Shown here: one piece after another, positions 39,136 through 39,837 of the stretch
How positions within the stretch are numbered: the stretch's first letter is position 1
Layout: each line of letters begins with the position of its first letter
From: Escherichia coli
Lineage (GTDB): Bacteria; Pseudomonadota; Gammaproteobacteria; Enterobacterales; Enterobacteriaceae
DNA length: 64,000 nt
NCBI RefSeq assembly: GCF_051903065.1
Contig: NZ_CP178438.1
Direction: 5' to 3' (one strand)
Program-made: the position numbers

Positions 39136-39837
39136 AGTTATGCGCAGATGCCTGATGCGACGCTTTGCGCGTCTTATCATGCCTACAAAACTGAACTTAA
39201 CCGTAGGCCGGATAAGGCGTTTACGCCGCATCTGGCATGAACAGTGTGCATTTTGGCAATAAATATGAAACCAACTGTCATGTCGGTTTTTTTAAAGGCC
39301 GAAGGTGGTAAACCTTCGGCCTTAGCGACGTTTCCTCAGTTATTCAATAAACTGACGGATCAGTTCCAGCAGCGCGATTAGCGCCTTAAGAACGATGAGA
39401 ACTTTATCGAGAAAAGTTTTCATCCGTTGCTCCCTTAAGGGAGAAAGACAATCACAGCTTACCCTTACGTTGCCTGTAACTATGATTTTCTTCATGTGCT
39501 AGATGAGGACTGCCTCTCTCCAAATTAGAGCACCAGAATCAGCACCACCTGTATCCTGACCAGGACTTAAAAGTACTTTTCCGCACTGCGGTAATCCCTT
39601 GAGGCAGTATCACTACTAGCGTCGGGATTGTATCGCCAACATAGCTGTTTGAATATGTAGGCATCCTGACTTATAATTCACTTGCTAGATGAGGACTGTT
39701 TCATTTCTGCCCGGAACCACCAAGTCTTGGGCGGAAAAAATAAAAAAACCGACTGTCATGTCGGTTTTTTTATATCTGTATTCTGGTGCAACCATTCTGT
39801 TCTCACGACAATCGCCGTTTCAGAATACCGCCCATCA

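Follow-up and report, generated by a model that had tools for sequence, protein, structure and literature searches.

A perfect 14-bp palindrome, CTCCCTTAAGGGAG, lies at positions 39430-39443 of the window, by which we mean the whole stretch of 64,000 nucleotides that was analyzed, from Escherichia coli contig NZ_CP178438.1. We consider it probable that this palindrome reflects, at the DNA level, a hairpin in RNA that locks the Shine-Dalgarno (SD) sequence of a DinQ-like toxin mRNA, where it would serve as the 3:4 pairing of a dinQ-type switch. The element is real but not new, since the lock, the family, and the mechanism were published for dinQ/agrB in 2016; it is a known regulatory element in an uncharacterized paralog of a known family, recognized here from the sequence alone.

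In dinQ, the +1 mRNA is inert, with the SD motif GGAG (G184-G187) held inside the hairpin SL5 (C173-G187) that is formed by elements 3 and 4, and with element 1 (U16-C28) paired to element 2 (G94-G106) in the long stem S1 (Kristiansen 2016, PMC5066626). When the mRNA lacks 44 nt, element 2 is freed and pairs with element 3 (stem S2), and the SD sequence opens; translation proceeds from this 5'-processed form, on which the sRNA and RNase III also preferentially act (PMC5066626). Binding of agrB to G88-A119, a region that includes element 2, re-closes the hairpin, and RNase III cleaves the resulting duplex. This switch was established by SHAPE, by mutants that destabilize or restore pairing, by S30 translation, and by assays with RNase III (PMC5066626).

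A DinQ-like toxin gene and a divergent sRNA between ybbP and mnmH

The module occupies a 0.5-kb intergenic region between ybbP (36507-38921, plus strand) and mnmH (39835-40929, minus strand). On the minus strand, an ORF for a 27-aa DinQ-like toxin, MKTFLDKVLIVLKALIALLELIRQFIE (39340..39423), starts with the AUG at 39421-39423, and its stop codon ends at 39340. The toxin peptide scored 40.9 bits against the NCBIfam model NF041472 (toxin_DinQ; cutoff 30), for which K-12 DinQ scores 54, and 24.5 bits against the DqlB model, below its cutoff of 35; the protein models that match the peptide are all of the DinQ family. Among the matches listed, the peptide is closest to Serratia chromosomal copies. 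Neither the peptide sequence nor its accession was found in the literature searched. In alignments, the toxin start coincides with those of DinQ and Dql and follows a conserved SD sequence, and the annotated CDS of 51 aa, which carries the RefSeq label "damage-inducible type I toxin DinQ," is probably too long at its N terminus.

Alignment with K-12 dinQ places the inferred toxin promoter and transcript start upstream of this ORF. The putative -10 hexamer TACAAT (39627..39632, minus strand) is followed 7 nt later by the inferred TSS at G39620, and in the mRNA numbered from that position the AUG begins at nt 198. The -35 region of this promoter is weak, and the spacer is 15 nt. A search for a LexA box (CTGT-N8-ACAG, at most one mismatch) found none between 32.3 and 42.9 kb, and the LexA box of dinQ aligns to unrelated sequence in the window copy; without such a box, the "damage-inducible" label is unsupported for the ybbP-mnmH paralog. 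The 5' UTR contains an SL2-like stem-loop (nt 62-88, 39533..39559, minus strand) with the conserved block GGUGGUGC and an SL4-like stem-loop (nt 128-176, 39445..39493, minus strand). The toxin mRNA ends in a terminator hairpin, GGCCGAAGG...CCUUCGGCC (39295..39323, minus strand), after which a second hairpin is found at 39268-39289.

Divergent from the toxin gene, and not overlapping it, is an AgrB-like sRNA of about 90 nt (39684..39773, plus strand). The Rfam model RF02891 (AgrB) matches positions 39685-39773 with 53.6 bits (gathering score 40), and this was the single sRNA found at the locus in the Rfam search. The sRNA has its own sigma-70-like promoter, TTGAAT-17 nt-TATAAT (39649..39677, plus strand; 10 of 12 consensus matches), and an intrinsic terminator that ends at 39773.

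The 5' UTR and ORF of the window copy align block by block with K-12 dinQ, and the 5' UTR also aligns with plasmid dinQ/dqlB. A match to the toxin model, a divergent AgrB-like sRNA, a homologous 5' UTR, and an SD hairpin identify the locus as a type I toxin-antitoxin module of the DinQ/AgrB family.

The hairpin over the Shine-Dalgarno sequence

The window has a single copy of the palindrome, which had been noted over the toxin SD sequence in a preliminary description of this DNA. In the minus-strand direction it reads CUCCCUUAAGGGAG, with CAACGG and then the AUG after it. In the toxin mRNA the palindrome occupies nt 178-191 as CUCCC-UUAA-GGGAG, made up of a 5' anti-SD arm (CUCCC, 39439-39443), a loop (UUAA, 39435-39438), and a 3' SD arm (GGGAG, 39430-39434). 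The range given earlier, 39410-39440, contains the element except for its last 3 nt. The GGAG motif (39430-39433) is separated from the AUG by the 6-nt spacer CAACGG, which is a normal SD distance, the A of the start codon lying 10 nt after its first G and 7 nt after its last G, so that the earlier figure of 8 nt holds as an approximation. The DNA palindrome is perfect only because the UUAA loop happens to be self-complementary.

The predicted energy of the isolated hairpin is -7.0 kcal/mol, compared with -6.2 kcal/mol for dinQ SL5. In the RNAfold prediction for the full-length mRNA, pairing of GGGAG reaches at least 96%, with a probability (P) of ∼0.98 for each of the three inner G-C pairs. 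The proposal that the hairpin sequesters the SD sequence is supported by the full-length fold, in which the SD sequence is paired and not free, and by the dinQ SL5 homolog, for which SHAPE and S30 translation showed a block to translation of the full-length mRNA (PMC5066626). By alignment, the hairpin is homologous to SL5 (hairpin 3:4) of dinQ. The two are alike in position and size (CUCCAU-CGC-AUGGAG in dinQ and CUCCC-UUAA-GGGAG in the window), whereas the fifth stem pair is C-G in the window copy and A-U in dinQ, and the self-complementary loop is found in the window copy.

Neither the bare palindrome nor a lone hairpin predicted from this single sequence exceeds the chance level. The window contains 7 perfect 14-bp palindromes where 4.3 are expected from block shuffles, 14% of which reach 7. 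When the pyrimidine-rich 20 nt 5' of the SD sequence were shuffled, an equally good SD-pairing hairpin appeared in 32% of the trials, a frequency explained by the C/U-rich tract upstream of the SD sequence. As neither the shuffles nor the palindrome counts for the window copy were significant, we relied on comparative evidence instead.

Homologs were collected by blastn against plasmids and by a pattern scan of one genome per species, and were filtered to true family members. The pattern scan gave mostly random matches, with at least 18 family members among the 120 loci listed, and it is therefore not a census. The scan pattern required the TGCTCT and GGAG blocks but did not fix the hairpin, so that it carries an ascertainment bias for element 2 (described below) and not for the hairpin. 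All of the collected homologs have a hairpin of 4-7 bp with the SD sequence in its 3' arm, and its loop varies from 3 to 5 nt (UUUA, UUCA, AUA, AUC, UUUAU, CUG, UAA, and others).

When RNAalifold was applied to a plain MAFFT alignment, the SD hairpin was missed because its arms were out of register, a problem that was solved by covariance-model realignment of 31 sequences. In this realignment, which is fitted to the tested structure and so biased towards it, the SD hairpin is in the same place in the 31 family members, with 92.9% of its cells paired. Three of the five pairs of the SD helix show compensatory changes (C-G/U-A/U-G, U-A/C-G, and A-U/U-A/C-G/G-U), and members with a GGGA-type SD sequence have a UCCC-type anti-SD sequence. 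Plasmid dql members have an SD hairpin like that of the window copy, with covarying arms. The neighboring SL4 covaries strongly, with compensatory changes in six of its seven pairs. For SL4 and the SD hairpin taken jointly, the observed covariation score was reached by none of 500 shuffles, and in a control in which the partner columns were slid, pairing fell to 34-47%. The window copy itself matches the family covariance model with 112.6 bits (E = 1.7e-27). In the phage collection searched, no homolog was found. A distant blastn search of E. coli genomes with the 5' UTR did not reach the canonical dinQ and zor loci, and it thus gives no direct test of a relationship to zor.

The predicted four-element switch and its alternatives

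Folding and alignment of the 5' UTR identify, in silico, four elements that can form the mutually exclusive pairings 1:2, 2:3, and 3:4; element 2 contains the sRNA site. Element 1, GCUAGUAGUGAUACUGCCUC, is the mRNA 5' leader (nt 1-20, 39601..39620, minus strand); it resembles the 5' end of the sRNA and pairs with nt 103-123 in an S1-like lock. Unlike its dinQ counterpart, it covers nt 104-123 and not the GGAG of element 2. Element 2, GGAGAGAGGCAGUCCUCAUCUAGC, is the sRNA target (nt 100-123, 39498..39521, minus strand) and contains an SD-mimic GGAG that is predicted to act as an anti-anti-SD sequence. The element 2 stretch GGAGAGAGG is the one predicted to open the hairpin in the processed form. 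Element 3, GAUUGUCUUUCUCC (nt 168-181, 39440..39453, minus strand), is a pyrimidine-rich tract separated from element 2 by SL4; it ends in the anti-SD sequence and has the SD sequence (3:4) or element 2 (2:3) as its alternative partners.

In the RNAfold prediction for the full-length mRNA, the S1-like stem, SL2, SL4, and the SD hairpin all form, and the 5' UTR has a z-score of -2.64. In 5'-truncated forms (+21 to +60), GGAGAGAGGCAGUC (nt 100-113) is bound to GAUUGUCUUUCUCC (nt 168-181) in the MFE structure, and P of the SD hairpin drops to 0.2-0.35. When the sRNA site of a truncated form was blocked, P of the hairpin returned to 0.97. The predicted energies of the 1:2, 2:3, and 3:4 pairings are -24.5, -23.6, and -9.4 kcal/mol, respectively, compared with -30.4, -19.3, and -8.1 kcal/mol in K-12 dinQ, and that of the sRNA with element 2 is -39.7 to -47.7 kcal/mol, compared with -58.2 kcal/mol for agrB in K-12. 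The order of the four pairings by energy is identical in the window copy and in dinQ, which is consistent with a switch. In an RNAfold control with K-12 dinQ, the +1 structure was reproduced, and the SHAPE-proven opening of the +44 form was reproduced weakly (from 0.87 to 0.69), so that these thermodynamic predictions are supportive but not decisive, and soft in both directions.

The 2:3 pairing is also conserved. The duplex, which at 14 bp is longer in the window copy than in dinQ, has 84% of its cells paired across the family, and its pair 34-109, beside the GGAG:CUCC core, covaries (UA 14, GC 5, GU 3, UG 3, and AU 2). The base of S1 shows compensatory changes as well, being GCUAG/CUAGC in the window copy, GUUAG/CUAAC (the a/a' pair) in dinQ, and GUUGG/CCAAC in IncX1 copies.

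The first 24 nt of the sRNA (39684-39707) are predicted to pair with element 2, which lies 75-98 nt before the AUG, in agreement with the 75-90 nt proposed earlier for the sRNA-complementary tract. This pairing is degenerate, with a Watson-Crick run of 15 bp followed by four G.U pairs and one mismatch. The duplex of 24 bp differs from the near-perfect one of ∼33 bp formed by agrB, and its energy was placed between those of functional agrB and non-functional agrA (-42.7 kcal/mol). Duplex energies were computed with the 5' end of the sRNA only, as a whole-sRNA duplex over-extended the interaction. Canonical dinQ/agrB would cross-pair poorly with this copy, in Watson-Crick runs of at most 6-7 bp.

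On the model of dinQ, the module would work as follows. In the primary transcript, element 1 would pair with element 2 and leave the anti-SD arm free to close on the SD sequence, so that translation would be off and the sRNA site buried. Loss of the first ∼20-50 nt would free element 2, and pairing of its GGAGAGAGGCAGUC with GAUUGUCUUUCUCC would pull the anti-SD sequence out of the hairpin. The SD sequence would then be exposed, and the 27-aa membrane toxin could be made. By pairing its first 24 nt with element 2, the divergent sRNA would mimic element 1, so that the hairpin would re-close and translation would be blocked; RNase III cleavage of the sRNA:mRNA duplex would probably follow. From homology to dinQ we infer the processing event, the translational effects, the RNase III cleavage, and the toxicity of the window copy. 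The activation by 5' processing that had been suggested for this locus is supported by both the dinQ homology and the predicted folds.

The preliminary description had likened the locus to the standby logic of tisB and zorO, in which the SD sequence would stay closed after processing, ribosomes would load ∼75-100 nt upstream, and the sRNA would occupy that loading region. In zorO, processing leaves the SD structure closed, and a standby ribosome and the sRNA are in competition. The corresponding SD structure of tisB likewise stays closed after processing, with the sRNA competing with the standby ribosome (PMC5066626), and standby or EAP-region control of toxin translation is described for zorO/orzO (PMC5397157). 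Like tisB/istR-1 and zorO/orzO, the window copy has a long structured 5' UTR, a sequestered SD sequence, an sRNA site far upstream of it, and, as predicted here, an inert primary transcript activated by 5' processing.

The distance of the sRNA site from the AUG suits standby loading, and RNAfold predicts that the SD sequence of the truncated form is still mostly paired: GGGAGC re-pairs with an upstream UGCUCU (P ∼0.66), and the hairpin persists with P ∼0.3, so that the SD sequence may not be fully free after processing. In addition, a 2024 study found part of the zor 5' UTR to be 71-74% similar to plasmid dinQ 5' UTRs, and the authors of the dinQ study, who contrast their switch with standby control, could not exclude an additional standby contribution (PMC5066626). 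However, the sRNA target is not single-stranded in the fold predicted for the processed form, where it forms the 2:3 duplex with element 3, a pairing that is conserved in the family and covaries at pair 34-109. Instead of marking a loading region, the sRNA site of the window copy is a predicted anti-anti-SD sequence that would control the SD hairpin directly, and SHAPE of dinQ showed that the SD sequence opens on processing and closes on agrB binding (PMC5066626). The competing pairing of GCUCU with GGAG(C) shows no covariation in the family; its left arm is invariant, and its 6-bp form is specific to the window copy.

Membership in the tisB or zorO groups was considered and rejected. No tisB/IstR or Zor/Orz model of Rfam or NCBIfam matched the locus at threshold, the OrzO-P match, which covers the terminator only, reaching 24.1 bits where the gathering score is 60, and IstR was not found at the locus in the Rfam search; the models that did match are those of the DinQ family.

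Standby control of the window copy is unlikely; what weight it has comes from the predicted partial pairing of the SD sequence to the upstream GCUCU after processing. From these comparisons, the best-supported analogy for the locus changes from tisB/zorO standby to the dinQ/agrB switch between mutually exclusive structures.

A further reading is that the window copy is a drifted regulatory variant of the dinQ switch, independent of SOS for want of a LexA box, double-locked, and only tuned by its sRNA. Its double lock would rest on the predicted re-pairing just described, in which the processed SD sequence would leave the CUCCC arm only to be taken up by the invariant GCUCU upstream; an additional input, for example a standby ribosome, a helicase, or a second cleavage, would then be required for translation. 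A 108-bp deletion, present in ∼196 of ∼1326 chromosomal carriers (∼15%), takes out the hairpin together with the start codon and some of the sRNA target but keeps the sRNA; under such regulation, this recurrent loss of the toxin may mark ongoing selection against it. We judge this variant of the switch to be unlikely.

It is distinctly unlikely that the module is a decaying or silenced paralog whose hairpin is an inherited relic, with a toxin that is unexpressed or non-toxic and a poorly matched sRNA. The degenerate sRNA-target pairing, the missing LexA box, the weak -35 and 15-nt spacer of the toxin promoter, and the 108-bp deletion could all be taken as signs of decay. However, ∼1130 genomes keep an intact 5' UTR at at least 99% identity, and the ORF, SD sequence, start codon, terminator, sRNA promoter, and four switch elements are all intact; moreover, deletions that remove the toxin and keep the sRNA are what would be expected of a toxin that is active and sometimes costly.

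Finally, action of the palindrome as DNA, be it as an operator bound by a dimeric regulator or, through the CTTAAG within it, as a target of restriction/modification, or its occurrence by mere chance, is highly improbable: although the inverted repeat is perfect and such palindromes are common in the window, homologs keep the pairing and its position exactly over the SD sequence but neither the sequence nor the perfect symmetry, they have non-palindromic loops, and compensatory changes in the arms are the signature of an RNA stem and not of a protein-binding DNA site.

Relation to dinQ and the dql genes

With the dinQ-type switch as the preferred reading, the likeness of the window copy to dinQ extends to a 27-aa toxin with the common core ALIALLELIR, to a 5' UTR built from the S1 lock, SL2, SL4, an SD hairpin, and four mutually exclusive elements, and to a divergent, non-overlapping sRNA whose 5' end pairs with element 2 ∼75-100 nt before the start codon. 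In contrast, none of the features of dinQ proper is found in the window copy, which lies at ybbP-mnmH instead of gor-arsR, has no LexA box, and has one sRNA where dinQ has agrA and agrB; its start codon is AUG where that of dinQ is GUG. The ybbP-mnmH site, the missing LexA box, and the single sRNA make this a dql-type paralog despite its "dinQ" annotation.

The dql genes have been defined by a dinQ-like 5' UTR and signature peptide residues; in Enterobacteriaceae they are found both on chromosomes and on plasmids, their annotated N terminus is often too long, and 14 of their sequences appear in a figure of Kristiansen 2016 (PMC5066626). The window copy fits this published definition, including the over-long N-terminal annotation. 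One plasmid member, the DqlB/agrB pair of pOXA-48, was validated in 2025 as a toxin-antitoxin module by toxicity and by compensatory sRNA/UTR mutants (PMC12365149). Whereas that pair is a plasmid addiction module, the module of the window is always chromosomal and occupies a fixed site; of 5426 complete E. coli genomes, 1332 (about a quarter) have it, and O145:H28 and APEC O78 are examples of carriers. Weel-Sneve 2013 (PMC3567139) describes the DinQ peptide as a toxic inner-membrane peptide that is neutralized by an sRNA. By analogy with DinQ and with DqlB of pOXA-48, the toxin of the window copy would be expected to be toxic, to insert into the membrane, and to be neutralized by its sRNA.

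The value of these findings is mainly curatorial, as the gene had already been named by the NCBI annotation pipeline. They indicate that the gene is a dql-type paralog and not the SOS-regulated dinQ, that its 51-aa CDS probably needs shortening, and that ∼15% of the chromosomal carriers have a deletion at the toxin end. Beyond curation, the C-G fifth pair, the longer 2:3 duplex, and the weaker sRNA are the features of interest in this natural variant, which, if tested, would bear on how much sRNA complementarity, and which alternative pairings, a dinQ-type switch needs.

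Start codon of the toxin

The RefSeq-style coding sequence for the toxin (39340-39495, - strand) spans 51 aa and begins at an upstream ATG at 39495, a position that falls within the structured 5' UTR of the toxin mRNA. The NCBIfam match of this 51-aa product is confined to residues 29-50. Because of this match, the conserved Shine-Dalgarno (SD) sequence and the family alignment, we place the toxin start at the AUG at 39423; judged from sequence, the true product is probably a 27-aa protein and the annotated form overlong. The extra N-terminal stretch of the 51-aa form overlaps SL4, a stem-loop at 39445-39493 (- strand) whose changes are of the compensatory type seen in RNA.

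Pairing of the sRNA and of an invariant block in the leader

Complementarity between the sRNA (39684-39707, + strand) and its target in the toxin leader, element 2 (39498-39521, - strand), is degenerate, with 15 Watson-Crick pairs followed by 4 G.U pairs and one A.A mismatch. The predicted energy of this duplex is -39.7 to -47.7 kcal/mol, in between those of the E. coli K-12 pairs agrB:dinQ (-58.2 kcal/mol, functional) and agrA:dinQ (-42.7 kcal/mol, non-functional in vitro).

Upstream of element 2 lies a TGCTCT block (39526-39531, - strand; mRNA nt 89-94) that is unchanged in all 13 of the homologues found by blastn. In dinQ this block belongs to the agrB target, whereas in the window copy the sRNA core leaves it uncovered. 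For TGCTCT of the window copy, folding predicts two partners, the GGAG of element 2 while the mRNA is full-length and the SD (GGGAGC) once it has been processed; no covariation was found for the TGCTCT pairing.

Repeats, relatives and a deletion allele

The sRNA terminator hairpin is repeated directly (~27 nt, AAACC[A/G]ACTGTCATGTCGGTTTTTTTA) at 39742-39772 (+ strand) and at 39268-39298, where the copy adjoins the distal side of the toxin terminator. One shared element thus flanks the 0.5-kb module on both sides, and the 39268-39298 copy may be left over from a second agr-like sRNA or from the insertion event. REP/BIME-type repeats cluster between ybbP and the module (38959-39242), with Rfam naRNA4 matches at 39005-39082, 39105-39183 and, partially, 39206-39242, and an ES036 match at 38959-39001.

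Among the matches listed, extra covariance-model matches show that in some genomes family copies sit in tandem, two or three to a stretch of ~1 kb (loci L016, Citrobacter werkmanii, and L122, C. amalonaticus). Members also occur, among the matches listed, on contigs labelled Haemophilus sputorum or Lachnospiraceae MAG (loci L019, L037 and L108), probably through plasmid carry-over or contamination.

One family member, locus L134, is a deletion allele lacking 108 bp equivalent to 39401-39508 and bounded by the short repeats GATGAGAAC and GATGAGGAC. The deletion takes out the start codon, the hairpin around the SD, SL4 and a large part of the sRNA target, but the sRNA gene stays intact. Matches number 1326 chromosomal places versus 1130 at ≥80% coverage, counts that suggest ~196 genomes with this or a similar deletion.

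Promoters and LexA

The toxin and sRNA promoters are divergent and back to back, and their -35 hexamers, TTCAAA for the toxin (- strand; poor, 15-nt spacer) and TTGAAT for the sRNA (+ strand), overlap at 39648-39654. No LexA box was found in the toxin promoter (39600-39680), where the aligned dinQ LexA box falls on unrelated sequence, nor was CTGT-N8-ACAG (≤1 mismatch) found within several kb of this promoter. The "damage-inducible" annotation is probably wrong for the ybbP-mnmH paralogue.
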